Shown: positions 29,059-63,932 of the stretch, in pieces
How the letters are laid out: every line of letters starts with the position of its first letter
How positions within the stretch are numbered: position 1 is the stretch's first letter
Translations under genes and position numbers: made by a program
From: a virus
Virus record (IMG/VR): IMGVR_UViG_3300035142_000030
Span: 1 to 64,000 of that record
Reading direction: 5' to 3' (one strand)
Length of the DNA: 64,000 bases
Notes under the pieces: generated by a model
Seen by the model: the letters and a program-made list of their open reading frames with translations, nothing else
The model's database searches: none
What the model was told of the DNA's origin: nothing

Positions 29059-29242
29059 TTTTATATTGAAAAGTTTATACATTTTCATTTTGATGATATT
29101 ATCATTAATTTTGTTTTGGGAATTATACGCTAAAAATTACGTTCAAAAATATATCGATTTTGAATACGGTCACGACATCAAAGAAACTAAGAGTAATAGT
29201 AATTTAATAATTGAAATGTTAAACGATGAGCCCGAAGGATAA
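29042..29242 (+). CDS. Small membrane protein
   Basis: Single N-terminal TM segment. Confidence 0.5.
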   Translation: MKKIGNFILKSLYIFILMILSLILFWELYAKNYVQKYIDFEYGHDIKETKSNSNLIIEMLNDEPEG

Positions 29243-29549
29243 CAGTAGATTGAAAATAATAACTTGGATAGTCGCAATATTTATGCCCTTAATGTTTGCA
29301 ATTCTTGTTGCTTATTTTCCGATAATAAACAACAATTCAAAAGCGGCTACAGAAGCGTTGGTGGGAATCAAAAATTTAGAAAAAAGTCAAGCAAAAGAAT
29401 TTGAAAATATTAACGATCAAATTAACAATGTCAAAACCGATATTAGTATAAATAAACAAAATTTTAGAATAGTTACGGATAAATTGCGAGATCAGGGATT
29501 ATTGAAAAATGTTGTAATAATCGATAGAAGTTTTATTGAAAATAATTAA
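29226..29549 (+). CDS. Membrane-anchored coiled-coil protein (holin-like)
   Basis: N-terminal TM plus coiled coil, directly upstream of the endolysin. Confidence 0.45.
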   Translation: MSPKDNSRLKIITWIVAIFMPLMFAILVAYFPIINNNSKAATEALVGIKNLEKSQAKEFENINDQINNVKTDISINKQNFRIVTDKLRDQGLLKNVVIIDRSFIENN

Positions 29550-29560
29550 AAATAAATAGC

Positions 29561-29935
29561 ATGAATTTATCAAATCATCAATTTGAATTTCTAAAAGATT
29601 TGTCGTCTTTGATTGATTTTATATCAAATGTCAAAAAAATAAAAATAACAGCTACATGGTTGCATAGACCGCAAGAAGTTCAACAACAATTATATAATGA
29701 AGGTTTAACAAAAACATTAGAATCAAATCATTTGTATAGTTGTGCGATTGATTTAAACATTTTTATTGGAAATCGAATTTTAACAAATTTAAGAAAAAAA
29801 GATTTAACAAAAGAAGAAGTTTATTTGTTAAATGAAATTGGTGCTTTTTGGGAAAATTTAAATAAATTAAATCGTTGGGGTGGTTTTTGGAAATCTATTT
29901 ATGACCCTGGTCACTTTGAACGAAATGTTAAATAA
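29561..29935 (+). CDS. Endolysin, peptidase M15 family (L-Ala-D-Glu peptidase-like)
   Basis: R...Q..LY, SNHLYSCAIDL and RWGGFW...DPGHFE Zn-peptidase motifs. Confidence 0.88.
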   Translation: MNLSNHQFEFLKDLSSLIDFISNVKKIKITATWLHRPQEVQQQLYNEGLTKTLESNHLYSCAIDLNIFIGNRILTNLRKKDLTKEEVYLLNEIGAFWENLNKLNRWGGFWKSIYDPGHFERNVK

Positions 29936-29956
29936 TATAAAAAAATATATAATGAC

Positions 29957-30166
29957 ATGAAAAACGCAATGAAGGATTGGATCACTAATATAGTAGCTAT
30001 ATTATTATGGGGAATTAGTACATATGCTTATTTCTTTACCGATAAAGAAATGAAGTTCTTAGTTTATATTGGAGTGATGATGTTAGGTTTTTCTTTTTTG
30101 TTTATAGATTCTAAACAAATAAGAGCATTAATTATTAAGTTTGTAAATAAGAGAATAGAATCATGA
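29957..30166 (+). CDS. Holin candidate
   Basis: 69 aa, two TM segments, basic C-terminus, MKNAMK possible dual start, next to the endolysin. Confidence 0.6.
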   Translation: MKNAMKDWITNIVAILLWGISTYAYFFTDKEMKFLVYIGVMMLGFSFLFIDSKQIRALIIKFVNKRIES

Positions 30167-31026: not shown

Positions 31027-31155
31027 ATACAACGTTAAGCTTATGATACGTTGCGTTTAATAACATAACTTTTTGATAAAAATAAAAATTATATAAAATG
31101 AATATACTTAACAAATTAGCAAAATGTAAGCAATGGATTATACGCATTGTTAGCA
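31027..31155. repeat. attC-like site; its loop contains the start of the 31098 gene
   Basis: ATACAAC...TATGATACGTTGC / GCAATGGATTATA...GTTAGCA; homologous to the site at 51269-51398. Confidence 0.7.
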
Positions 31156-31478
31156 GTAGTTTATCTGGGAGGGTTTTTTATGATAATGGTAAAAAATATA
31201 TTATTCCTAAACACGTTTGGTTTAGCACAACTTTTAAAAAATATGGGAATGTACATAAAGCAAAGTTTGTTATCAACAAATACTCAAAGTCAGAACCAAA
31301 ACGAAGAATATGTAAATACATAGATGTTACAACTGGAACATATTTTTGTTTTGTAACCGCAAAAAGCAAAATAGAAGCACAAAAATTATTTTATAAGCAA
31401 TTGTGCGAATCAGGTGTTATTTTAAATGAAGAAGAAGAATGGAATCAATTTTTTTTCGGGCATGAACAAAGCGAATAA
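31098..31478 (+). CDS. Hypothetical cassette-type protein
   Basis: N-terminus KQWIIRIVSSS is encoded by the attC arm. Confidence 0.6.
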   Translation: MNILNKLAKCKQWIIRIVSSSLSGRVFYDNGKKYIIPKHVWFSTTFKKYGNVHKAKFVINKYSKSEPKRRICKYIDVTTGTYFCFVTAKSKIEAQKLFYKQLCESGVILNEEEEWNQFFFGHEQSE

Positions 31479-31489
31479 AATTTGACATT

Positions 31490-31762
31490 ATGGATATAGT
31501 AGAACATGCCATTAATAGAATTGAGTTTAATGAACACAAAATAAATGAATCTTTAAAAGAATTAAAAGAACTTAAAGATAATTTAATTGTAAAATATAAA
31601 CATCCTGAAATTGATATTAAGAGATTACTTCAAGATGAAAAATATAGATACATTATAGCACTTAAATTATCGAAAAATAATGTAGAAACTGCTAAATTAT
31701 TAGGAACTACTGAAAGAACATTTTATAGAAAAATGAATGAATTTAATTTACATAACCAATAA
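31490..31762 (+). CDS. Fis-type HTH protein
   Basis: C-terminal ALKLSKNNVETAKLLGTTERTFYRKM matches HTH_8. Confidence 0.75.
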   Translation: MDIVEHAINRIEFNEHKINESLKELKELKDNLIVKYKHPEIDIKRLLQDEKYRYIIALKLSKNNVETAKLLGTTERTFYRKMNEFNLHNQ

Positions 31763-31774
31763 AAATTAGAAATT

Positions 31775-31984
31775 ATGAGACAAGAAGTAAAATTTAGAGC
31801 ACCAATTAAAGTAATTGAAAGCGACAACTATTATTTGGTAATAGAGGATGCCGTTGGAGTTACGCATTATTTTCACAAAGAACATGATAATAAGTATGGA
31901 AAATTTAAACAAGGCGAATATGATGGATGGAGTAAACAAATTCGTAGTTTAAATGATAATACGAAAAAATGTTGTGGATTTTAA
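31775..31984 (+). CDS. Hypothetical protein
   Basis: 69 aa, AAATTATG start. Confidence 0.55.
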   Translation: MRQEVKFRAPIKVIESDNYYLVIEDAVGVTHYFHKEHDNKYGKFKQGEYDGWSKQIRSLNDNTKKCCGF

Positions 31985-32078
31985 TGTCCCGTTTAGAGGT
32001 ATATCCCGAAATAAAAAAAAAACTCGTAGAGTTTTGGGGGTACGGGATGGGTTGTGGGAATACCGAGCAAGCAATGGT

Positions 32079-32151
32079 TTATAACACAGCGGGATTTATG
32101 GGACGGTTTGGGGCTTTTGCCCCAAAATGGACTATGAAATCACAGTTAGGC
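32079..32151. repeat. attC-like site B
   Basis: TTATAAC...GATTTATGG / CTATGAAATC (extrahelical G)...GTTAGGC with an internal TTTGGGGC-TTTT-GCCCCAAA hairpin. Confidence 0.75.
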
Positions 32152-32166
32152 ATAAAATTTTTTGAT

Positions 32167-32367
32167 ATGGAATTTATAGTAGAATTAGAAGAAGGTGTTT
32201 ATTTGGCTACTTGGTCTGGCGACCCTGGGCGAACACTAAAGATTGAAAACGCACAAGTATTTGTCCGCGATAAAGATGCTGATAATGCTCTTGTTAGAGC
32301 CAGATATTATAGACCATTTAAGTATGCCAAAGTGCGAAGGCAAAAGGAAGGGTTGCGAAGCAGCTAA
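32167..32367 (+). CDS. Cassette gene, hypothetical (MEFIVELEEGVYLATWSGDPG...)
   Basis: Start re-called downstream of site B; lies in a body with 13-bp complementary ends. Confidence 0.65.
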   Translation: MEFIVELEEGVYLATWSGDPGRTLKIENAQVFVRDKDADNALVRARYYRPFKYAKVRRQKEGLRSS

Positions 32368-32386
32368 GGATGGGGGGGATTTTTAT

Positions 32387-32479
32387 GCCTAACGGTTTGG
32401 CTATGTTTAGTAGCCTAACCACTAACTTTGAAATATTTACTAAATTTGCATAGGCTATTAAATATAGCTTTTGTTATAA
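32387..32479. repeat. attC-like site C
   Basis: GCCTAAC...GCTATGTTTAGTAGCCTA / TAGGCTATTAAATATAGC...GTTATAA; 18-bp stem with two G-T pairs on the + strand. Confidence 0.8.
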
Positions 32480-32483
32480 ACTT

Positions 32484-32638
32484 TTAAGGGGGCTTCTTCG
32501 GAAGTATCAGCAGAAGGGGAACTTCGATAGCACAGTTGGTATGAGGCAACGACTTCAAACATCGTATATCGTAGGTTCGATTCCTACCGAATGACTTAAA
32601 ACGAGGCGTTACTGCACGCCTACCCTCTGCCCCCTTAA
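32484..32638 (+). ncRNA. Structured RNA with an embedded degenerate tRNA domain
   Basis: Terminal 10-bp stem TTAAGGGGGC/GCCCCCTTAA, C(UUCG)G hairpin, D-loop AGTTGGTA, anticodon arm ACGA..TCGT, T arm GTAGG-TTCGATT-CCTAC, extra AGGCGT/ACGCCT hairpin. Confidence 0.6.
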
Positions 32639-32745
32639 TTGTTTTATAACTATTAAATAAACACACCTGCATTAAAACTATTATATTTAATATAAATTTT
32701 AATATAAAAATCAAGAATTACCATAAAATTAGGGGAAATTTTTAT

Positions 32746-45603: not shown

Positions 45604-45702
45604 TTATAACTACGTATAAATTCAAAAACCATGTGATAAGCTCATAAACTTTAAGATTACTCCGTAATCCAGTTTCTGAACTTATACGTTTGAACGTTAG
45701 GC
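45604..45702. repeat. attC-like site D (left edge of array 2)
   Basis: TTATAAC-T-ACGTATAAATTCAAAAAC / GTTTCTGAACTTATACGT-TTGAAC-GTTAGGC; A/C mismatches become G-T pairs on the minus strand. Confidence 0.8.
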
Positions 45703-46748: not shown

Positions 46749-47051
46749 TCATAGTTTTCTATTTAAAAATGTAAATAATGCTGGTATATTCTCTCTAAAT
46801 ATAGAAGCATTTAACTCAGTACCCTCTATTTCTTCATATAAAGCTGTATAGTCGTCTTTCAATACTTTCATATATATTTGCCCCAAATTAAGACCATTAT
46901 ACTCCTGAGCGAGTATATCTGCCTTTAAAATGAATTGATTAAATTTAACTTGCTTGTCCATAATTCTATGTTTTATGAGTTGTTTTCTTTTTAGTTCTTT
47001 TAGATGTTTATGGTTTAACATCTCTAAGTGATCACATATAAAATCATTCAT
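46749..47051 (-). CDS. Hypothetical protein (start likely MNDFICD or MDKQVKF)
   Basis: The track start overlaps the HNH gene heavily. Confidence 0.4.
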   Translation of the reverse strand: MNDFICDHLEMLNHKHLKELKRKQLIKHRIMDKQVKFNQFILKADILAQEYNGLNLGQIYMKVLKDDYTALYEEIEGTELNASIFRENIPALFTFLNRKL

Positions 47052-47466
47052 TGTTTTTATTAATATCCGATAATTTTTCAAAATAAAAAACTCCATCAAA
47101 AGGTTTATTCTCAGTAATTCCAAAATATTCAGCAACTTTTAATAAATACTTTTTACGCTTAATAGACTTTTCAGTTTTTGGATTTTTAGGTAACTTTCTA
47201 AGTCTTTTATGTAAGCCGCCTAAATACCAAGTTCTGAAAGTTTCTAAATCTAGTGATCCTTTATAATGGTTTATTATTTTTTGAACGGGAAACATATTTT
47301 CAATATTATGCGCTCTTTCATTCATAGCCGTATTAGTCCACCAATTTCTAATTAGTGGTTCAACATGGTCTACTTGCCAATCATCTTCCAGATCAGTTCC
47401 TGAATAGGCACATTTACCATTGAATTTTGGTCTTATAATTTCTCTATTCTTTTTTGAAATGTACAT
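47044..47466 (-). CDS. HNH endonuclease family protein
   Basis: GKCAYSG...WQVDHVEP...NMFP...NHYK. Confidence 0.8.
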   Translation of the reverse strand: MYISKKNREIIRPKFNGKCAYSGTDLEDDWQVDHVEPLIRNWWTNTAMNERAHNIENMFPVQKIINHYKGSLDLETFRTWYLGGLHKRLRKLPKNPKTEKSIKRKKYLLKVAEYFGITENKPFDGVFYFEKLSDINKNNE

Positions 47467-47770: not shown

Positions 47771-47830
47771 AATATCAATTAGTTAAAATTTATGTTCCAC
47801 CTATCGATTAGTTAGCTGTAATAAAATTTA

Positions 47831-48100
47831 CTATCGTTCTACCCAAAAAGGATATTCCCCTGTATAAACTACTTTATTGCCAGCATTTGGCACGTATTCC
47901 CCTCGCTCGGTTTTCATCCAGTTCATTAGTGGTTCAAATGATGTTTTAGTTTCGTAACCGAAGCATCCATATTTAAACTTTATCTCCTTTTTGAAACCTT
48001 CATTTTCAGTTAAATCTCCAAATGGTGTAACATAAGGGAATACTACCATATCACCCTCGCACACTTCAATTCCGTTTTTATCAAATATATTACTTTTCAT
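47831..48100 (-). CDS. YopX-family cassette protein (start re-called to MKSNIFDKNG)
   Basis: DKNGIEVCEGD motif; the upstream part of the track ORF is attC sequence. Confidence 0.7.
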   Translation of the reverse strand: MKSNIFDKNGIEVCEGDMVVFPYVTPFGDLTENEGFKKEIKFKYGCFGYETKTSFEPLMNWMKTERGEYVPNAGNKVVYTGEYPFWVER

Positions 48101-48118
48101 GCCGTAAATTTTACATAC

Positions 48119-48218
48119 CGCTAACAAGCGGTCATAGTTAATAAAGCCAATTAAGTTTAGTTCGTTGTAGGTTGCGGTAGTGGGTGGCTTTACTAACCAT
48201 ACCGCATCTACGTTACAG
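48119..48218. repeat. attC-like site F
   Basis: CGCTAAC-AA-GCGGTCATAGTTAATAAAGCCA / TGGCTTTACTAACCATACCGC-ATCTAC-GTTACAG, with an extra C in the left arm. Confidence 0.82.
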
Positions 48219-48266
48219 ACAATTGCCCGCACGGCATTCCGCACGGGCTATCGCTCACAACCCACT

Positions 48267-48623
48267 CTAAATTTTGTTTAGAATTTGTTCCAACGCCCAA
48301 TACTCTGGATTTGCAAGAGCAGTAACTACATTATTAATATCACAAATACTAATAATCAGCCAAATACATAAAATGATTGCAAGTATAACAATTGCAATCC
48401 AATGTCCAACTTCAGTATCATTATCATAGCATTTTTGATAATTTTTAGCAAACCATTTTATGTATCGCACATATGGTATAATTAAGAGAAAAGAAATAAT
48501 GATTAAGGTAATTCCCACAAATGCATCAATAGGTGCTTGCTTAATCATAACTCCCCACAAGTATTCGGTCGTTGTACCAAGCTTACTTGCTAAGCTTTCT
48601 AATAATGTTGTTAATTCATTCAT
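48267..48623 (-). CDS. Two-TM cassette protein
   Basis: LASKLGTTTEYLW...NPEYWAL; body ends GTTACAGACAATTG / CAATTGTCTGTAAC. Confidence 0.7.
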   Translation of the reverse strand: MNELTTLLESLASKLGTTTEYLWGVMIKQAPIDAFVGITLIIISFLLIIPYVRYIKWFAKNYQKCYDNDTEVGHWIAIVILAIILCIWLIISICDINNVVTALANPEYWALEQILNKI

Positions 48624-48666
48624 TTTAATATAATTTAGTTAAACAAAATTTTCTAATGTCAATTGT

Positions 48667-48814
48667 CTGTAACAGTCGCCTAAATACAGCATTCGTCGCA
48701 GCTTCGTATCAAATTGGTTCATATCGTATTGAAACCCTAAGGCAACTATCTGTAACTACTAAATACAAGCCAGCGAGACAAGCTCGCCATCGTGTATTTA
48801 GGCGACTGTTAGAT
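48667..48814. repeat. attC-like site G with perfect 19-bp arms
   Basis: TAACAGTCGCCTAAATACA / TGTATTTAGGCGACTGTTA. Confidence 0.8.
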
Positions 48815-49001
48815 TCCATACTCCCACGGCATTCCCACAAACCCCGCTACGCCCCACCGCACAAAAACCATCGTATGAAATCTAATGGTACGGCAAGTAG
48901 TACCACTCGCTCAATACCATTTACGTATCTGAATCTTATTACTTCCTCCAACGTACAGAATCTAACTGTCAAGTCAGAGGAAAGTAATTTTAGAACTCAT
49001 T

Positions 49002-49226
49002 CTAAACAATACGTTTACAGCTTAATTCCCAATGTACTTGTTCGGCAACTTTTAATCTACGAACTGAACTTTTTCCAGTTTCAGGTAATTTGCCTTCATT
49101 TAACCATAATAATATCATTTGTATAAAGTTGCCTGCTGGCAATTCTACTTTTTGACCTTTACCATCTATATAATAAACTGTATCAGTCAATTCGCTGTAA
49201 ACTAATTCTTTTTTTTGCTCAATCAT
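49002..49226 (-). CDS. Hypothetical protein enclosed by an 18-bp inverted repeat
   Basis: 74 aa; arms at 48884-48901 and 49276-49293. Confidence 0.6.
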   Translation of the reverse strand: MIEQKKELVYSELTDTVYYIDGKGQKVELPAGNFIQMILLWLNEGKLPETGKSSVRRLKVAEQVHWELSCKRIV

Positions 49227-49396
49227 TTCTATATAATTTTATCTGTTAATAAACAATGTTCTAAAATTCCCATCCACTACTTGCCGTACCATTGTAACTC
49301 AATTGACAGCTCTCCATCCGCACAAGGCTTCCCATCCGCCCCGCAAAATACCAAAGCAATTGAGTTACAACGCTCGGAGTTCATTCGATGTAAAAA

Positions 49397-49651
49397 TTAT
49401 GAAACACCGAGTTTATGAGCTTCTTCATCAAATGCAATTTTTATATTTGTAATTTCAGTTTGAATTTCTAATAAAAGTTCATGAAATTCTTGTTGCTTAT
49501 CTTCAATTTGTTTGTCAGCAAATTGCATTTTTGAAATTATGTTCTCCTTATAAGCATAAGCAGAGTTCAAATCATTTTTTAATTTTGTGTGCTTAGCTTT
49601 AAGAACATCAAGTCTATTTAAGTAATTACCATACTGTTCTTGAAAATTCAT
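49397..49651 (-). CDS. Coiled-coil cassette protein
   Basis: 84 aa. Confidence 0.6.
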   Translation of the reverse strand: MNFQEQYGNYLNRLDVLKAKHTKLKNDLNSAYAYKENIISKMQFADKQIEDKQQEFHELLLEIQTEITNIKIAFDEEAHKLGVS

Positions 49652-49700
49652 AATTTTTACCTTTCTATATTTAAGTTTATAATGTTCGATACGTCACAGC

Positions 49701-49810
49701 GTACAACTACGTGTAATGCAGAATTGCTACAATCGAATGATGCCGATTTACGGCTTTACTTTGCCTTGCGGCAAATCGCCGCAACTCAGCATACACTCCG
49801 AGCGTTATGC
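49701..49810. repeat. attC-like site
   Basis: GTACAAC-TAC-GTGTAATGCAGAATTGC / GCAACTCAGCATACAC-TCCGAGC-GTTATGC. Confidence 0.75.
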
Positions 49811-49842
49811 GTAAAAATACCCGCATCCTAGTTCGCTAACGC

Positions 49843-49938
49843 TCACCCATCCGCATCCTCCCACTTATCAATATACAATTTTAGCTTATAAATAAGTATT
49901 CCTATTACAATTCCGATTCCTATTAATATTAAATTCAT
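49843..49938 (-). CDS. 31-aa single-TM micropeptide cassette gene
   Basis: MNLILIGIGIVIGILIYKLKLYIDKWEDADG; fills a body with 16-bp complementary ends. Confidence 0.55.
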   Translation of the reverse strand: MNLILIGIGIVIGILIYKLKLYIDKWEDADG

Positions 49939-50095
49939 ATCCAAATATTTTTACGCATAACACCAGAGAAAATATACCGTCCCGCAGGAGACGTTCTCCA
50001 GTATCTGCAAGTTTATATTCCTAATATTTCTACTCATAACTAAAAAATCATAGCACATTAAAATCAAAACTCTGTGTTTAATAAAATAAAGCCAA

Positions 50096-50446
50096 TTAAT
50101 ATATATTCTTTCTACCCCTGTCAGCGTGCAATGGTACTAAATGATCACACGAACCGCAAAAATGTTTAGCTTTAGTCTCCCAGTAAATTCCTTCAGAATG
50201 TGTATCAAAAAGCGAATTACAATTGCTACACATCTCAATATGGTCTGGTAGTAAAGGAAAATGTTCTTGTAAATAATAAATTATTGCAAACGCTTTTTTA
50301 GCTGTCATCTTTGGCTGATGCCCACGCTTAAAAGAAAGTTGTTCAGGTAATTCACCTTGTAAAAAATTGTAAAATTCTTCTATCCATTCAAGGTCTGTAT
50401 CAATCCTCTGATCATTATTTTTAAGCAATTTTATTTCATTGTACAT
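50096..50446 (-). CDS. Zn-binding hypothetical protein
   Basis: CSNC...CGSC; enclosed by an 18-bp inverted repeat. Confidence 0.6.
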   Translation of the reverse strand: MYNEIKLLKNNDQRIDTDLEWIEEFYNFLQGELPEQLSFKRGHQPKMTAKKAFAIIYYLQEHFPLLPDHIEMCSNCNSLFDTHSEGIYWETKAKHFCGSCDHLVPLHADRGRKNIY

Positions 50447-50586
50447 AAGGCTTTATTTTTAATTAGTACTAAATTTATAATCATATTTTACCTGTAATTT
50501 CATCAAGTTTCAATCAATGTTTTAATTTTACCGTCCCATATTTTCTCTGGTGTTAGAAAACATGCCGTTTCGAACGGACGCAAAAA

Positions 50587-50868
50587 TCATTTTGCTTTCT
50601 TATATTTAGAGCCTTTACTATTACAAAAATCACATATTGCATTGTTAGGTTTGTTAGATATACATGAACTGCAAAATTTCCATTTTTGCTCATGTTTTCT
50701 AACGGTTTCACGTTCGTTTGATATTAAAATTTGATTGATAAAGTCATTCAATTGGACTATAGCGTATTCAACAGACAACATATCTAATGTGTCTTCATCT
50801 CCAATTGTATCAAGTCTATCCATTAATATCTTACGTATTCCATCAGTATAATCTTTTTTATGTTTCAT
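50587..50868 (-). CDS. Cassette protein with Cys-rich C-terminus
   Basis: CSSC...CDFC. Confidence 0.6.
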   Translation of the reverse strand: MKHKKDYTDGIRKILMDRLDTIGDEDTLDMLSVEYAIVQLNDFINQILISNERETVRKHEQKWKFCSSCISNKPNNAICDFCNSKGSKYKKAK

Positions 50869-50926
50869 AATATCAAATTTTAATTATTAATACTAATTTA
50901 GTTTATCAATTCTCAACGTCACGATT

Positions 50927-51036
50927 TTCTAACCAACGTTTATGCTTAATTAAAGCTATCAAACGATGCTCCGTTAAAGCTTTTCTTGCGTTTCACGCAA
51001 CCGCTTTAACAAAGCATACACGTGAAACCGTTAGAG
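50927..51036. repeat. attC-like site
   Basis: TTCTAAC-CA-ACGTTTATGCTTAATTAAAGC / GCTTTAACAAAGCATACACGT-GAAACC-GTTAGAG. Confidence 0.8.
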
Positions 51037-51041
51037 TGCAT

Positions 51042-51329
51042 TTAATCCAAGTGAATAAGCATTTCTCCCCACGCACTTCTACCTTTCACTTTCGGTAGTG
51101 ATGTGTAGTGTAGTGTCATTCCTGTAAATTCACACTCTTTGTTATTTAAACTTTTTTTAACCATCCAGTCTTTTGCTTCTTTCCTTATAATATCATCTTC
51201 ATTGTTTCGATGCCAGCCCACGCTAATTATCAAATTACCAATTCTAATTTTACTAAGTGAAAAACGCACTCTAACAATAGATAAAATCCATTGCTTAAAA
51301 TGTGCTAATTCGTTACGTAAGTATTTCAT
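51042..51329 (-). CDS. Cassette protein starting inside an attC loop (MKYLRNELAHFKQWILSIVRVR)
   Basis: N-terminus homologous to that of the 31098 protein. Confidence 0.6.
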   Translation of the reverse strand: MKYLRNELAHFKQWILSIVRVRFSLSKIRIGNLIISVGWHRNNEDDIIRKEAKDWMVKKSLNNKECEFTGMTLHYTSLPKVKGRSAWGEMLIHLD

Positions 51330-51398
51330 ATCAATGTTTTTATAAGTTTGAAAATTCAGTTCATTAAATCGCAACGTATCTTATCAGAGCCGTTGCAC
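51269..51398. repeat. attC-like site homologous to 31027-31155
   Basis: CTCTAAC-AATA-GATAAAATCCATTGC / GCAACGTATCTTATC-AGAGCC-GTTGCAC. Confidence 0.8.
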
Positions 51399-51485
51399 AC
51401 AATGCCCCATCTAGGGGACGTGCGACTCGCTATCGCTCCTGTCGCACTCATTGTGTGCAACAGTTTGGCGTTAGCTTGTAAATAA

Positions 51486-51662
51486 TTATTCGCTCAGTAC
51501 TTCTAAACTATAAGATGATACATAATCAATCTTTTTACCAACTATTACAACTGCATACGGTATATCATCAGCTCCCCGCACGTATCCATCAATGTATCCA
51601 ACATCTCCAACCTTAAACATCATATGTTGGTATTCTTTAATAATTTTAACTTTTGTCTTCAT
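51486..51662 (-). CDS. 58-aa hypothetical cassette protein (MKTKVKIIKEY...)
   Basis: Translated by hand; below the track cutoff. Confidence 0.6.
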   Translation of the reverse strand: MKTKVKIIKEYQHMMFKVGDVGYIDGYVRGADDIPYAVVIVGKKIDYVSSYSLEVLSE

Positions 51663-51697
51663 AATTATTTATTTAGTTATTTGTTAATTTCTGCTTA

Positions 51698-51868
51698 CTA
51701 GATGGTGCACAATGTGCAACTAGCGTTTATGCGTAATTGTAATAGGCAATTTCCAATCTCCCAGTAACTTGCGCCTAAACGTTCCAATATCATTTCAGCT
51801 TTCTCAAAGCTCCAACTTTTATAACATTGATAAAAGTTCCCTTTATAGGTATACATTATATGAATCAT
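51698..51868 (-). CDS. Hypothetical protein (start MIHIMYTYKG)
   Basis: AAATTATG context; C-terminus reads through an attC-like arm. Confidence 0.45.
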   Translation of the reverse strand: MIHIMYTYKGNFYQCYKSWSFEKAEMILERLGASYWEIGNCLLQLRINASCTLCTI

Positions 51869-51985
51869 AATTTTATATTTAAAGTTTGTACTAAATTTTA
51901 ACAATACCCTAAAAATCCTTCCCATATCTTTCGGAGTGTTATGGCTCAATTTCGCTACGCTCTACGATGACTTCATTTAATTGAG

Positions 51986-52171
51986 CCATAACGAGACAAC
52001 GTATGAAGTACAGGCTCAGTGTACTATATTAATTCTATTTTAATTTATCCGCTCAACTAGAGCATAACTACATATAAGCGTAATACTATGAGCCTTACTT
52101 CAAAGCTCTCAGAATATTTCACCGATAAAAATCGGCTCATATTCCTACGCTTATACGTTGTCTCGTTAGTA
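51986..52171. repeat. attC-like site with perfect 16-bp outer arms (right edge of array 2)
   Basis: TAACGAGACAACGTAT / ATACGTTGTCTCGTTA, plus inner TGAAGTA..AGGCTCA / TGAGCCTTACTTCA pairing. Confidence 0.75.
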
Positions 52172-52253: not shown

Positions 52254-52868
52254 TTAGGATAAAGCTGCAAGTAGTTCAGTTACCCACTTATTTGAATCTT
52301 CACATCTTTTCAATTCTGCATTGTGTTCTTTTGTGTGGTATTCAATATCCCAGTTGGCATCTGCAATCATATCCTTTCTAATATCAGCAGCATTTATGTT
52401 TTCTAATTGAGAATCTATCTTGCTTAACTCATCATCGTGGTACTTTGTGTCTCCATCGTGGTCAATAGTTGTCACTATCTGTTCAATCATAAATTTAGCA
52501 ATTCCTTCGTGGTCTTTTGTTGGTGGTTTGAAATCCCTTGCTTTAATTAAAAACTCATCAAGTTTAACCCTTGCTTTTTTTATTTCCTTAATTCTTTCGG
52601 TGTGATAGGTTCTACTTTCTTTTATCTGTTTTTTGCGAGAGGCAATTATTTCAGAATCGGTAAGTTTCTCAGCTTGATTTAATTTTTCATTAGCTGTTTT
52701 TAACGCTTTAATATGGTAATCGCTCGGCGTTCTTGGCACGTACTCTTTATTCATACTTTCATCTCTCATATGTATAGTTGCTCCAAAAGCTCTCATACAT
52801 TGTTTTGCAAAATCTTGGAATGTTTCGGTTGTGCCGTCAATAATTCCTGCTGTGTAACCTGTTGGCAT
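52254..52868 (-). CDS. Conserved-looking phage protein (MPTGYTA...)
   Basis: 204 aa, helical. Confidence 0.65.
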   Translation of the reverse strand: MPTGYTAGIIDGTTETFQDFAKQCMRAFGATIHMRDESMNKEYVPRTPSDYHIKALKTANEKLNQAEKLTDSEIIASRKKQIKESRTYHTERIKEIKKARVKLDEFLIKARDFKPPTKDHEGIAKFMIEQIVTTIDHDGDTKYHDDELSKIDSQLENINAADIRKDMIADANWDIEYHTKEHNAELKRCEDSNKWVTELLAALS

Positions 52869-53295: not shown

Positions 53296-53553
53296 TCATA
53301 AATTTCGTTGTTTCTGAATGTTAATGTCAGATTTACGCTGTGTTCTGTACTCTCCATCTATTTCAAATATTTCTAGATTATTATATATTTTATGTTTAGG
53401 CTTAATCCCATCACGTACTCTAAACCATCCCATAATAGTATCACGAGGTATATTTAATAAATCCCTTAAAACACCTTTATTTTTACATAGATATTGTTCT
53501 CCTGTACTACGGTCTCTTACAAATACTTTAGTAGTTCTTCTAAATATTATCAT
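53296..53553 (-). CDS. Hypothetical HTH-like protein
   Basis: 85 aa, LRDLLNIPRDTIMGWF. Confidence 0.45.
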   Translation of the reverse strand: MIIFRRTTKVFVRDRSTGEQYLCKNKGVLRDLLNIPRDTIMGWFRVRDGIKPKHKIYNNLEIFEIDGEYRTQRKSDINIQKQRNL

Positions 53554-54080
53554 TTTCTTATTTGTGTAAGTGGATTAATATACTTTAGTCCCTCTTTCAT
53601 CCTATCGTGGAATTGCCTATTAAGGTATGATTGCCTGGGGTTGTTCCCAAATTTAGCAATTATCATTGCCCTCACTGCTTCTTTTGATATGCCAAGCTCT
53701 TTACCTATTTTAGTATACCACCAACGCTTATTGGTAAATAGATGATATGCCTTCTCTTTAATATCGTTGGGTATCTCTTTACCTTCAATGTTAAGTGTTA
53801 GATTCTCTTTATCGTTGTTTTGGATATCTCCGTCTTTATGTATCACTTTAGCGTGAGGGTTGAATATTCCATAAAACATCAAATATTTGAACTCATCTAC
53901 CGACACATCCACACGAAGCGAATAACCGAGCATTAATCGGTAGATGTATTTCTTATTTATAAACATCACTTTTACGGGTCTTTTCTGCTTTGTATTTAAT
54001 AGCTCTTCTTTTTTAGTGTCAAAGGTATACTTACCGATAGAAAGTGCCCCTAAACAAACGTACTGAGTTTTTAAATCCAT
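53550..54080 (-). CDS. Degenerate HNH plus HTH protein
   Basis: VIHKDGDIQNNDKENL; IGKELGISKEAVR. Confidence 0.6.
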   Translation of the reverse strand: MDLKTQYVCLGALSIGKYTFDTKKEELLNTKQKRPVKVMFINKKYIYRLMLGYSLRVDVSVDEFKYLMFYGIFNPHAKVIHKDGDIQNNDKENLTLNIEGKEIPNDIKEKAYHLFTNKRWWYTKIGKELGISKEAVRAMIIAKFGNNPRQSYLNRQFHDRMKEGLKYINPLTQIRK

Positions 54081-59771: not shown

Positions 59772-60368
59772 TTATAGCACATCAGGCTTGAACTCAAAGA
59801 TATATGCTTTATGCCTAGTTTCATCTTTTAAATATCGATTAATTGTTTTGCGATCTACACCGAAATGTTTAGCCGCATCGACAACAGAATCAAACTGTAA
59901 TTGTTCCCTGGTTTGTATGTGTGTGGTTAATATAGGTTTTTTCTTTGCATTTGACATTTTTATGCGTGTTTCAAGGTTGTGCGGAGGTTTTATTTTGCCT
60001 TTCCAATAACTATTCCTTTGTCCTGTCTGAAAGGATTTTAATATGTTTTCGCTATGAGTTACCCACTCTAAGTTAGATATATGATTATTTAACTTATCGT
60101 GGTCAATATGGTTAACCTCTTTCTTATATTTATTGTCGCTATATCCCTTGAAAGTGATTAATACGAGCCTATGAGCGAAGAATATCTTTGTGCGTGGTTT
60201 ATCTCTGTTCTCTTCTGTCTTCTCTTGCGTAAGATGGTATAATATATAGCCACAACTATTTAGTTGAGGTTTTAAGAATCTTTGCTTTCTGATAGAATAC
60301 ACATCACCGTTTTCATATATATAATATAAGTTTTCAAATCCTGGTAACATTATTGTTTTTCTTTTCAT
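59772..60368 (-). CDS. Free-standing HNH homing endonuclease (NUMOD4-HNH-NUMOD3/NUMOD1 type)
   Basis: PGFENLYYI.ENG, AHRLV, EVNHIDHDKLNNHISNLEWVTHSEN, ETRIKMS, FDSVVDAAKHFG. Confidence 0.88.
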   Translation of the reverse strand: MKRKTIMLPGFENLYYIYENGDVYSIRKQRFLKPQLNSCGYILYHLTQEKTEENRDKPRTKIFFAHRLVLITFKGYSDNKYKKEVNHIDHDKLNNHISNLEWVTHSENILKSFQTGQRNSYWKGKIKPPHNLETRIKMSNAKKKPILTTHIQTREQLQFDSVVDAAKHFGVDRKTINRYLKDETRHKAYIFEFKPDVL

Positions 60369-60752: not shown

Positions 60753-60929
60753 TATAAAATAAAATATAATATGTGAATGTACTAAGTTTATTTGATGAGA
60801 TATCATCAAAGCTACTTCATCTTAATGGAGTCTAATGGTTGAGTATATGAGTAGTGTCCCAAACGTACAGTGGGACGCACATAAATTTTAAAAAATGTAC
60901 AAACGAGAATATAAACTATAAAAACACGA

Positions 60930-61346
60930 GTGATGAAAAATTTAAAACAGGCATTAATTGAAAATATCGCTGACATTTTAGATAGTGAAGATGTACGGTG
61001 TGAAGAGGTGTTAAACGGAATTTCCGACCCGATAAAAAGAGAAAAAAGCGAGTTGCATATAAGGATGGCAGAAGCTGCACTTGCTGAATACAAAAGAACG
61101 TGCGAGGACAGGGCAATGGAATTAGATATTGAAATATTTGACAAAAACAGAAAGGTATTACATATAGGTAGTATTATAAGCCGTTATTTATTTAAACTTG
61201 CAGAAAAGCACGATAAAGATGTTGAAGATTTACTACTAGGTATAGAACTAAGCCAACCAATTAGAGATGATGGAAAGAACATCATAGAATTAGTGGACTT
61301 AGACCTTAATAGAATTGACAAGGTTTTATGTTCTAATGGCTTATAA
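60930..61346 (+). CDS. Cassette-type protein spanning an attC-like arm (KVLHIGSIISRY)
   Basis: Stop TAA lies inside the TTATAAC core of the next site. Confidence 0.55.
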   Translation: MMKNLKQALIENIADILDSEDVRCEEVLNGISDPIKREKSELHIRMAEAALAEYKRTCEDRAMELDIEIFDKNRKVLHIGSIISRYLFKLAEKHDKDVEDLLLGIELSQPIRDDGKNIIELVDLDLNRIDKVLCSNGL

Positions 61347-61623
61347 CGTTGAATGTATGGGTAGGGCGTGAAATACCTGCAGCCCTACACGCGATAGATA
61401 AACATTAAATAACATAAATAGCGAACGATTATGAAACACGTAATAGAATTACTTACAGAACAATTAGAATTGATTAGTGACGAAATAAGATATGCAGAAG
61501 GTGAAGAACTGAAACAGTTAGACTGCAGAAACACAGAAATAGGGACTGCTCTTAAAATACTGCAGTTAGTGAGCGGTGTAAATACGGAGAACGAACAAGC
61601 CTTACCTATACATATTGTTAGGG
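61341..61623. repeat. Large attC-like site whose loop holds the start and about 55 codons of the 61431 gene
   Basis: TTATAAC-GTTGA-ATGTATGGGTAGGGCGTG / CAAGCCTTACCTATACAT-ATT-GTTAGGG (17 of 18 paired, two G-T on +). Confidence 0.8.
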
Positions 61624-61826
61624 TTTGTGCTTGGGAGGATGCTGCAGACGAGGATAAAGTACCATTTTTAGAAAAAGCTGCAGAACTTGCAGGTGATTCA
61701 ATGTTTTGTACGCGCGTTTGGAGTGCGTGGGGAGTTGGAACTATGAGCGAGAACGACTTTGTTGATGCTGCAGATGATGATGATTACGTATACGAAATAG
61801 CAAAAGCGATTTGGGAGGGGTATTAA
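61431..61826 (+). CDS. Two-part cassette protein (junction ALPIHIVRVC)
   Basis: 131 aa; C-terminal half lies in the body GTTAGGGTT...AACCCTAAC. Confidence 0.65.
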   Translation: MKHVIELLTEQLELISDEIRYAEGEELKQLDCRNTEIGTALKILQLVSGVNTENEQALPIHIVRVCAWEDAADEDKVPFLEKAAELAGDSMFCTRVWSAWGVGTMSENDFVDAADDDDYVYEIAKAIWEGY

Positions 61827-61924
61827 CCCTAACGCCTTAAAGCGTAAACTCCGTTACATGGAGAACGTAGTTCGGGAATGTAACGAGTTTAAAATGCTGT
61901 AATGGAGTTTACGCATAGTTACAA
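61827..61924. repeat. attC-like site
   Basis: CCCTAAC-GCCTTAAA-GCGTAAACTCCGTTACA / TGTAATGGAGTTTACGC-ATA-GTTACAA. Confidence 0.82.
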
Positions 61925-61976
61925 ACCGTGCCAATGGCACAAAGATTATTAGAATGTTGAACTTAAAATAAATTTT

Positions 61977-62126
61977 ATGAAACGTTTATGTAAAATGAAA
62001 CCATATTATGTAATACCAAGAGTATTTTATATATATGCTGGCTATACTGGATTAGATAATGGATTAGCAATAGGTTGGCTTGGCAGAATGTTTATTATAA
62101 TTATTCCTGTTAATGAAAGGGAATAA
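61977..62126 (+). CDS. 49-aa hydrophobic cassette protein
   Basis: Translated by hand (MKRLCKMKPYYVIPRVFYIY...). Confidence 0.45.
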   Translation: MKRLCKMKPYYVIPRVFYIYAGYTGLDNGLAIGWLGRMFIIIIPVNERE

Positions 62127-62465
62127 AATTTATGCATTTTAGCTTTAAGGCGTTACAAAACCATAGGCAAACAGTGGAAACGGTGAGCGAAGCGAATAAG
62201 TTTCGTTTGCCGTGCCTCGATGGCATGGTTTTGTAACGTACGTGTATACGCCTGTTGGTATGATTATTAATAGTATAAACTTAAATTAATAAATAATAAA
62301 ATTACGTAAATTCGCAAAAATAATAAAGACAACGAAAACAGATTTGCAGAAATGATAATACCCAGAAAAGATATTGATATAATAATTAAGAGACAAAGAT
62401 CAATATTATAACAAAGTGTTAATCAAAAATTGAATGAATAATAAACGTATTAAATATATAATATT

Positions 62466-62951: not shown

Positions 62952-63932
62952 ATGAACGAAAGTAGCAATAACAGTTTTTTGAGCGTTGGTGGAAAAGCCG
63001 AAGGGATAAATGTAGTAAGTATGTTTGATGGTGCAAGCTGTGGACAAATAGCTTTAGAAAAAGCAAAAGTAATGGTAAAAAATTATGTTGCTTCTGAAAT
63101 AAAGCCACATGCTATAGTAACATCTAAATTACATTACCCAAACACTATACATGTTGGAGATGTTAGATACTTGCATGTAGTAAATACGGGTGTTGAAGTT
63201 AATATTAATAGAGCACAATATAGAACAATAGGAATTGGATTAATTGATTTAATAATCGGTGGTAGCCCCTGCAAAGGGATAAGCAGATTAAACAAAAATC
63301 AAGAAGGGTTAAAGCACAAGGAAAGTATTTTATTTTGGGAGTTTGTGAGGGTTTTAGAACAAGCTAAACTGTGTAACCCAGATGTATATTTTTTACTTGA
63401 AAATACGCACGGAAATAAAGAAGCAACTCAAATAATAACTGAGACATTAGGCGTTAAACCTATTAGCATTAACAGTAAACTTGTTACAGCACAAAATAGA
63501 CCTAGATACTATTGGACAAATATACCAGGCATTGAGCAACCAAAAGACAAAGGAATAACGACCAACGATGTTTTTAAATACAACGGGGACATAGTAGATG
63601 ATTGTAGGGTAAAATGGCTTAATAACGATAGTGGTAAAAACTCTGTAAAAAAAGGATACACAAGAATAAACCCTTACCCTAAAAGTGGTTGCTTAACTGC
63701 CAATGGACATAAAAAATGGAACGAGAATTATTTGTATAAAGATGGTGTGTACAGATATTTATCTAAAGAAGAGCTAGAGGTATTGCAAACATTTCCAATT
63801 GGATATACAAAACATTTAAGTTATGATGATGCTTATGATTTAATTGGCGAGGCTTGGACGATTGATATTATAGCACATATATTTTCTTATTTGCCGATAG
63901 GCAAAAGAGGGGGAGAAAAAGATGTATGTTAA
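62952..63932 (+). CDS. C5-cytosine DNA methyltransferase
   Basis: SMFDG (motif I), GGSPC (IV), FLLENT (VI), QNRPRYYW (VIII), LQTFP and IGEAWT (IX/X). Confidence 0.9.
   Translation: MNESSNNSFLSVGGKAEGINVVSMFDGASCGQIALEKAKVMVKNYVASEIKPHAIVTSKLHYPNTIHVGDVRYLHVVNTGVEVNINRAQYRTIGIGLIDLIIGGSPCKGISRLNKNQEGLKHKESILFWEFVRVLEQAKLCNPDVYFLLENTHGNKEATQIITETLGVKPISINSKLVTAQNRPRYYWTNIPGIEQPKDKGITTNDVFKYNGDIVDDCRVKWLNNDSGKNSVKKGYTRINPYPKSGCLTANGHKKWNENYLYKDGVYRYLSKEELEVLQTFPIGYTKHLSYDDAYDLIGEAWTIDIIAHIFSYLPIGKRGGEKDVC

Follow-up and report, generated by a model that had tools for sequence, protein, structure and literature searches.

A chain of abutting inverted repeats in a phage genome as a probable array of integron-like gene cassettes

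Why are the small accessory genes in one part of a phage genome set among inverted repeats that abut and share their ends? The question is raised by a record from a wetland metagenome, IMG/VR IMGVR_UViG_3300035142_000030, a 76,721-bp phage record with direct terminal repeats and a G+C content of approximately 31%. We analyzed its first 64 kb (64,000 nt; hereafter the window, to which positions refer), in which an earlier reading made from the letters alone, the sequence-only reading, had described a near-continuous chain of inverted repeats at 47811-52171. Our analysis indicates that the chain is probably a row of some eight mobile cassettes, mostly with one gene each, which belong to an integron-like system. 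The chain is a member of a family of cassette arrays that is found in phages of Bacteroidota and in the chromosomes of Flavobacteriaceae. It is in the state that integron workers call a CALIN, an attC cluster without an integrase, and it represents a perfect-stem variant of a family that has only been glimpsed in the literature.

The virion module of the phage occupies 0-27 kb on the plus strand, and the chain lies inside a block of small minus-strand genes at approximately 41-58 kb. By blastn the region had no counterpart among isolated phages, a Pfam search matched none of ten chain proteins, and a PHROGs search of the chain proteins named only one membrane protein and one family of no known function. 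A search for relatives of the portal protein found none. An assembly artifact is an unlikely origin for the chain, because a second, independent Logan assembly of the same run is identical in sequence over 45-63 kb; the chain repeats are shorter than the assembly k-mer length.

The inverted-repeat chain

Read directly, 13 of the 17 pairs listed in the sequence-only reading are perfect inverted repeats of 9-19 nt, each running from a GTTR or YAAC core. This count includes two pairs with a G.T: 51030/51275, which matches over 10 nt and, after the G.T, over 3 more, and 48808/48886, which matches at 13 of 14 nt, the exception being a G.T on the minus strand. The pair 47811/48125 is imperfect (6, 3 and 9 nt with a small bulge). 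The remaining three, 48119/48218, 50927/51036 and 51269/51398, are poor as plain repeats but are the top minus-strand matches of a covariance model of the family hairpin described below. An unbiased scan added two pairs that were absent from the earlier list, 50552/50703 (13 nt) and 50698/51035 (16 nt), which join within the open reading frame (ORF) 50587-50868, and it found the same type of pair at 61617/61833, 61830/62155, 62151/62238 and 32145/32393.

Chance and low complexity can be ruled out as sources of the chain, both by shuffling and by comparison with the remaining genome. The interval 47.7-52.3 kb contains 16 perfect repeats of at least 12 nt whose arms lie within 800 nt, against a mean of 0.46 and a maximum of 3 in 300 first-order Markov shuffles, and eight abutting links, against none in the same shuffles. 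The sequence-only reading had named the structural genes as the place where a comparable density of repeats would undo its claim. Nine 4.6-kb tiles over 1-41.4 kb held one such repeat altogether and no link, and the claim of a near-continuous chain survives this comparison. Repeats of this type are restricted to the accessory-gene blocks, and the virion module is essentially without them.

Adjacent pairs overlap by a core of 3-4 nt. Because neighbors share a core, GTT...AAC and AAC...GTT segments must alternate, and every segment has self-complementary ends. In terms of the gene-sense (minus) strand, we call the AAC...GTT segment a hairpin and the GTT...AAC segment, which is closed by its own stem, a body. 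From 52168 to 47811 the minus strand parses as hairpins and bodies in strict alternation, with nine such alternations and approximately 18 segments in a row: eight hairpin-plus-body units of 231-752 nt, one stemless stretch and one lone empty body. A single ORF is present in six of the eight units; of the other two, one has both a 116-aa gene and a 31-aa mini-ORF, and the last is without an ORF.

The minimum free energy fold of the entire 4.4-kb sense strand contains 13 of the 19 stems tested, including closures of gene length, and folding is more stable for the sense than for the antisense strand. With so many stems present in a single fold, most of them coexist and compete for only the 3-4 bases of the core. 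The region had been supposed to fold into alternative sets of hairpins. A single strand can indeed fold into a row of stem-loops that share their cores, but these do not form two mutually exclusive sets.

The cassette family, its boundaries and its recombinase

The family to which the chain belongs is seen in regular form in the phage contig L048, which has seven GTT...AAC bodies with six hairpins of 88-126 nt between them. In each hairpin, AAC and about five unpaired bases precede a stem of 3-4 bp, which a 1x1 mismatch separates from a second stem of approximately 15 bp; the loop and ...TGTT complete it. A junction pattern derived from L048 matched more than 120 IMG/VR stretches, of which we examined 80; 31 of these had at least three bodies. 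Among 13 aligned hairpins from five records, compensatory changes are seen at 17 of the 18 stem pairs, and the gene-sense strand has two conserved G.U pairs. Of 253 distinct bodies whose arm is perfect over 10 bp, 240 are interrupted at position 11 by 5'G/3'T on one strand, and in the arrays that were oriented this is the strand of the hairpin matches and of the genes. The loops of family hairpins contain a conserved motif and a start codon, from which an ORF crosses the 3' arm and enters the body, reading GTT as an in-frame codon; this arrangement is also found in the window at 51329 and 61431.

From the family hairpins we built the covariance model R1, and we define the family here by R1 together with the consensus of the body ends. 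R1 matches the window at 32391-32475(+), 31031-31151(+) and 51273-51394(-), and with its filters off also at 48123-48214(-), 50932-51032(-) and 45608-45698(-). All of these matches are on gene-sense strands, three of them within the chain and three elsewhere. The cores fit the integron boxes GTTRRRY and RYYYAAC loosely, and the canonical pair GTTAGGC/GCCTAAC is present elsewhere in the window, at 32145/32393.

Comparison with related contigs shows where contexts change. The cassette at 47811-48125 recurs in three other phage contigs, and its DNA homology begins at GTT and ends at AAC, which places the change of context at the cores. In L043/L046 and L045/L048 the closing arms of this cassette differ between contigs and yet are complementary within each, which argues that the stems are selected for pairing; the third contig, L044, has no inverted arm at the homologous cassette. 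L046 and L048, which share this cassette, carry R1 hairpins or a regular array. At the other end of the chain, directly upstream in the sense direction, lies a 204-aa gene (52254-52868) with many homologs, among them relatives at 88% and 77% (P0002 and P0006) and L038, which is 88% identical in protein. L038 aligns through this gene and 86 nt beyond it and becomes unrelated right after ...ACTAAC at 52168, the first core. Such homology breaks support the cores as likely recombination boundaries.

The size of the mobile unit follows from two of these comparisons. Arrays L177 and L178 have DNA in common (82-89% identity) from the AAC that starts a hairpin to the AAC that ends the next body; together with the break of L038 at a hairpin-starting AAC, this makes the mobile unit a hairpin plus the following body. 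The proposal that either segment type alone could be excised is therefore not upheld, and a single segment lies between inverted cores, where recombination would invert rather than excise it. Genes do occupy both segment types, as had been observed, but under the two-segment parse this only reflects where the ORF lies within its cassette.

Searches for further relatives were mostly negative. No chain was found in 34 distant relatives of the flanking gene (L004-L037), although L007 has family hairpins around the gene, and the flanking gene matched nothing in genome contigs. By tblastn, the 89-aa protein of cassette 47811-48125 had no match in isolated phages, and the cassette proteins of the window had none in 80 recombinase loci. 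The flanking gene is itself a cassette in relatives, lying between R1 hairpins in L007:2408-3336 and within an imperfect closing stem in L038:123-932; the copy in the window has lost its 5' arm.

Some arrays of the family adjoin a recombinase gene; the ORFs at L177:3480-4364 and L175:4615-5448 are examples of family recombinases. A Phage_integrase match is present in 5 of 30 array-bearing phage records, and in four of these five a gene for a recombinase of 275-294 aa, on the strand of the array, starts 45-515 nt past the last body. The best scores of these proteins are to XerA, XerD and IntI models, every score being below the cut-off, and the integron-integrase model is matched in two pieces that skip approximately profile positions 181-238, the site of the IntI-specific insert. 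Relatives of the recombinase adjoin R1 hairpins in contigs of metagenome-assembled genomes of Flavobacterium, Chitinophaga and others, and relatives of 355-395 aa, also with adjoining R1 hairpins, are present in cultured Gaetbulibacter aestuarii, Lutibacter litoralis, Robiginitalea and Maribacter genomes.

Read along the sense strand, each cassette opens with a hairpin (AAC, stem, loop, stem, GTT) and continues into a body (GTT, arm, body, complementary arm, AAC). In the mechanism that we envisage, the two arms of the body would be the counterpart of an extended integron R box; once the cassette was excised as a circle, they would lie on either side of the hairpin and lengthen its stem, which would explain why the body ends are complementary, like the 7-bp R boxes of an integron cassette. 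Crossover would occur at the AAC core, at the 5' foot of the hairpin, on a folded single strand, which here would be the sense strand. Judging from the layout, the antisense strand would be equivalent to the integron top strand, and the sense strand, with its wobble pairs, to the bottom strand that recombines in integrons. The catalyst would be a small Xer/IntI-like tyrosine recombinase from the host or from a co-infecting phage, and a supply of the enzyme in trans to this phage is plausible on the genomic evidence.

Segments of the array and neighboring genes

We describe the segments along the minus strand from upstream to downstream. The array begins with a hairpin of 180 nt (51989-52168) that has a 16-bp perfect stem from the core and no ORF; the array's upstream limit is the outer AAC of this hairpin (52165-52168), and its loop contains a ATAGAATTA motif resembling the loops of family hairpins. 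An empty body of 55 nt with a 14-bp perfect stem follows (51938-51992), and then a stretch from an AAC to a GTT core without a closing stem (51462-51937), whose two small ORFs (51698-51871 and 51486-51662) encode proteins with neither a Pfam nor a PHROG match. After a GC-rich, empty body of 70 nt with a 13-bp perfect stem (51392-51461) comes a hairpin of the ordinary family type (51269-51398), with an unpaired spacer after AAC and an imperfect stem; it contains the R1 match 51273-51394(-), at 28.1 bits (E 8e-5 in 8 kb), and its loop holds the start codon (51329) of a 95-aa ORF. The C-terminal part of this ORF (51042-51329) lies in the next body (51030-51275), the core being crossed in frame with GTT as a codon. 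Here the stem of 10 bp, G.T at position 11 and 3 bp is the usual closing stem of the family.

The next interval, 50552-51036, has two nested parses. In the ordinary parse, a hairpin of the usual family type (50927-51036; R1 match 50932-51032(-), 20.1 bits, E 0.0045) precedes a body with perfect 9-bp arms (50552-50933) that contains the 93-aa ORF 50587-50868. In the perfect-stem parse, 50698/51035 (16 bp) and 50552/50703 (13 bp) meet at an in-frame GTT inside this ORF. The sole homolog of the 93-aa protein, P0122, has the C-terminal module in common from that arm onwards, the residues of the arm included, and is unlike it in the N-terminal part. A 9-nt direct repeat, GTTAGAAAA, is present within 50552-50933 (-) at 50933 and again at 50703, at the edge of the inserted material. 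The following hairpin, of 598 nt (49958-50555), has an 18-bp perfect stem and an entire 116-aa gene (50096-50446) in its loop, for whose protein a search found no relatives. Directly inside both arms, flanking the insert, lies another 9-nt direct repeat, GGGACGGTA. The two direct repeats could be target duplications or could have arisen by chance.

Further downstream, a body of 158 nt with a 16-bp perfect stem (49804-49961) contains a hydrophobic 31-aa mini-ORF (49843-49938) and a G-rich 3' part. It is followed by a hairpin with a 12-bp perfect stem (49369-49806) and the 84-aa gene 49397-49651 in its loop, by an empty body of 81 nt with a 14-bp perfect stem and a G-rich loop (49291-49371), and by a hairpin with the variant core AAT...ATT (48884-49293), whose stem is perfect over 18 bp and whose loop holds the 74-aa gene 49002-49226. 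Next come the empty, G-rich body of 79 nt at 48808-48886, the stem of which is described above, and a hairpin of 142 nt (48670-48811) with a 19-bp perfect stem and no long ORF. The body at 48212-48673, closed by a 14-bp perfect stem, contains the gene for a 118-aa membrane protein (48267-48623; phrog_1486). Its homolog in L106, with 41% identity, has no such arms at its ends. The array ends with an ordinary family hairpin (48119-48218; R1 match 48123-48214(-), 22.4 bits, E 0.0015) and the last cassette body (47811-48125), which has an imperfect closing stem and the 89-aa gene 47831-48100 (phrog_98).

Several features distinguish this chain from the rest of the family, in which perfect arms of at least 12 nt are rare. 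An unpaired spacer is found in only three of its hairpins (48119-48218, 50927-51036 and 51269-51398), and the perfect-stem hairpins do not match R1. The closing stem of 10 bp, a G.T at position 11 and at least 3 bp is present at 51030/51275 and nearly so at 47811/48125 and 61617/61833; six bodies have instead 13-16 perfect bp with A-T at position 11. Three hairpins (49958-50555, 49369-49806 and 48884-49293) enclose a whole gene, and a fourth, 50698-51035, encloses the N-terminal part of one. The bodies that go with these four are 79-158 nt long. Two of these bodies are G-rich and contain no gene, a third has a mini-ORF, and the fourth has the C-terminal end of the split gene. The perfection of the stems may come from selection for closing large loops, from templated repair or from recent formation.

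Other sequence features accompany the segments. The short empty bodies and some 3' untranslated parts have sense-strand motifs in common that are rich in G, for example GCGGATGGG and GGAATGCCGTG (48230-48260, 48825-48870, 49305-49350 and 49815-49860). AT-rich inverted repeats of 10-14 nt without a GTT/AAC core, at 49390/49660 and 51475/51670 (-), bracket two ORFs from stop to start (GTAAAAATTATGAA with its complement); palindromic contexts of start and stop codons may be all that they reflect. The ideas of HpaI/HincII half-sites and of a TTAA-type target duplication at the junctions were dropped, because a junction holds one core only.

The window contains two further arrays of the same system, both on the plus strand, at 31027-32650 and 60830-62240. 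They include the R1 hairpins at 31031-31151 and 32391-32475, a weaker R1 match (31337-31418, E 0.003), the bodies 32145-32393 and 61617-61833, the perfect pairs 61830/62155 and 62151/62238 noted above, and a hairpin at approximately 61345-61619 (+) whose loop holds the start of ORF 61431-61826. Directly downstream of the chain, 47044-47466 (-) encodes a 140-aa protein that matches the PHROG HNH endonuclease and endonuclease VII families and is 30% identical to gp59 of Polaribacter phage P12002L, the gene for which lies between two weak R1 matches. Other HNH genes are found at 59772-60368 (HNH_3 with NUMOD1/4), adjoining the third array, and, as a weak case, at 53550-54080. Genes for DNA methyltransferases lie in or right after arrays in the window (62952-63932 (+)), in L048:3677-4644 and at 29237-30011 of NC_028924 (P12002L), in agreement with the methyltransferase cargo reported earlier (PMC9892861).

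Competing explanations and known systems

Several observations weigh against a mobile cassette array. No tyrosine or serine recombinase and no Y1 transposase was found in the whole 76.7-kb genome (Phage_integrase PF00589 with E up to 1, Resolvase and Y1_Tnp), tblastn with the family recombinases found no remnant of one, and seven of eight near-complete array-bearing phage records are likewise without a tyrosine recombinase. No alternative joints in the chain were found in Logan contigs of the probable source run, although rare forms would not be visible in contigs. Homologs in other arrays can be demonstrated for a single cassette of this chain, and two junctions fall within ORFs. Among approximately 170 loci compared, chained perfect stems of both classes occur in this genome alone (eight links versus at most one elsewhere), and most stems here are perfect for 12-19 bp from the core, without the unpaired spacer or the G.T break of the family. 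Of the published sites, P12002L_attC1 alone is clearly a hairpin of this type, and it was the one that failed with the integron integrase IntI1 (PMC9892861). The wobble pairs, finally, favor the sense strand and would fit a role in mRNA equally well. In such a role each stem would close one cistron of an early polycistronic transcript for processing, stability or translation control, and boundaries would coincide because self-contained units survive shuffling. Wobble pairs in both bodies and hairpins on the gene-sense strand, the more stable folding of that strand, and an array orientation that follows the genes on both DNA strands are all to be expected if RNA is what folds. However, the sense strand is also the one expected to fold in integron terms, the stems here are perfect Watson-Crick rather than G.U-tolerant, and cleavage at the two in-frame junctions inside ORFs would destroy the message. 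An Rfam search of the region matched no family, a dedicated tyrosine recombinase adjoins such arrays, and DNA homology breaks at the cores. We regard an RNA role as quite unlikely to account for the chain; it is compatible with the cassette explanation.

A lost capacity to move would leave a similar picture: cassettes might have arrived by an integron-like route, or as a block from a recombinase-bearing phage, with nothing moving now and the perfect stems produced by templated (quasi-palindrome) repair rather than by selection. The genome has no recombinase, the source-run contigs show a single form, and the stems are more perfect than the family norm, as within-strand template switching would yield. 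Decay, however, normally erodes stems rather than perfecting 13 of them, a relative differs exactly at the first core, and most complete array-bearing phages are without the enzyme, suggesting that supply in trans is normal; an inactive fossil is in our judgment unlikely. Inverted repeats that flank every segment, the 9-nt direct repeat around the insert of 49958-50555 and the two copies of GTTAGAAAA in 50552-50933 would also be seen in a multiple-inversion system of the shufflon or inverton type, or in a row of miniature transposons with terminal inverted repeats. But each arm pair has its own sequence, which means that no protein could recognize the arms by sequence and that they are not copies of one element; moreover, all genes have one orientation, the genome is without an invertase or transposase, and no target duplications flank the segment ends. 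We give this explanation very little credence. For the cassette array, DNA-level recombination is supported by the comparative breaks and by the enzyme associated with such arrays elsewhere; for this phage we infer it, as we infer any present activity of this copy.

If this assignment is right, a phage of lytic type and Flavobacteriaceae chromosomes draw on one pool of cassettes with folded sites, and the array bears on two open questions, the exchange of small accessory genes among phages and the origin of integron cassettes and attC sites. An isolated published report on a Polaribacter phage with attC sites is also linked by it to a far larger family with its own recombinase. The perfect stems, empty bodies and loop-held genes provide clean substrates for recombination assays, and should the enzyme work on folded DNA without the IntI insert, ideas on the evolution of single-strand recombination would need revision. 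More tentatively, and with less confidence than in the cassette array itself, we suggest that Bacteroidota phages and their hosts might share a cassette exchange parallel to that of integrons, in which an Xer-like recombinase without the supposed single-strand domain would act on the folded gene-sense strand. This array would then be in an unusual state (perfect fold-back stems, whole genes in hairpin loops, two inserts with 9-nt direct repeats, and an ORF in which a junction unites two halves of a protein) that may show cassettes being made or enlarged.

Integrons and CALINs are close known systems. As in these, one-gene cassettes stand in a row with a common orientation, the sites between ...AAC and GTT... 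boxes keep their structure and not their sequence, with crossover at the box, and each cassette begins with sequence complementary to the box at its other end. An Xer-related tyrosine recombinase adjoins arrays elsewhere, as in integrons, and no enzyme is present here, as in CALINs. The differences are also considerable. The family recombinase is without the IntI-specific insert and scores below IntI cut-offs; its gene is downstream and co-oriented in phages and convergent in the Flavobacteriaceae chromosomes examined, and never divergent across an attI site. The hairpin precedes its own gene, the better-pairing strand is the gene-sense strand, hairpin loops contain start codons or whole genes, and the ends are complementary over 10-16 bp rather than 7. 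An attC site is an imperfect hairpin of about 55-150 nt between RYYYAAC and GTTRRRY, in which strand choice is set by an unpaired central spacer and by extrahelical bases. AAC/GTT-bounded hairpins of 55-180 nt are present in the chain, but the full 7-nt boxes fit them only loosely; unlike attC sites, most stems in this window are perfect from the core, without an unpaired spacer or extrahelical bases.

Qi et al. (2023) described attC clusters without an integrase (CALINs) in virulent phages, including Polaribacter phage P12002L, and found that IntI1 recombined five of the six sites tested, among them P12002L_attC2 (PMC9892861). The oligonucleotide sequence of P12002L_attC1 maps in NC_028924 to a hairpin of the family type between two GTT...AAC bodies. 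The P12002L cluster is of the same family as the array described here, and its host group is likewise Flavobacteriaceae. That report identified two sites in P12002L by means of attC predictors; it does not include the alternation of hairpins and bodies, the dedicated recombinase, the G.T at position 11 or chains of perfect stems (PMC9892861). A literature search, of incomplete coverage, found no published account of this alternation or of a dedicated recombinase.

A different precedent is offered by plasmid pdif modules. These modules abut, share the intervening site and alternate in site orientation, with the result that module ends are inverted; any module may carry genes, and Xer-type recombinases are implicated in their movement. 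All pdif sites follow one common 28-bp double-stranded consensus that is bound by XerC and XerD. The pdif modules of Acinetobacter plasmids (PMC7399989) are a further close known system. In the array described here, by contrast, every arm pair is unique and only the core of 3-4 nt is common, which points to recognition of a fold.

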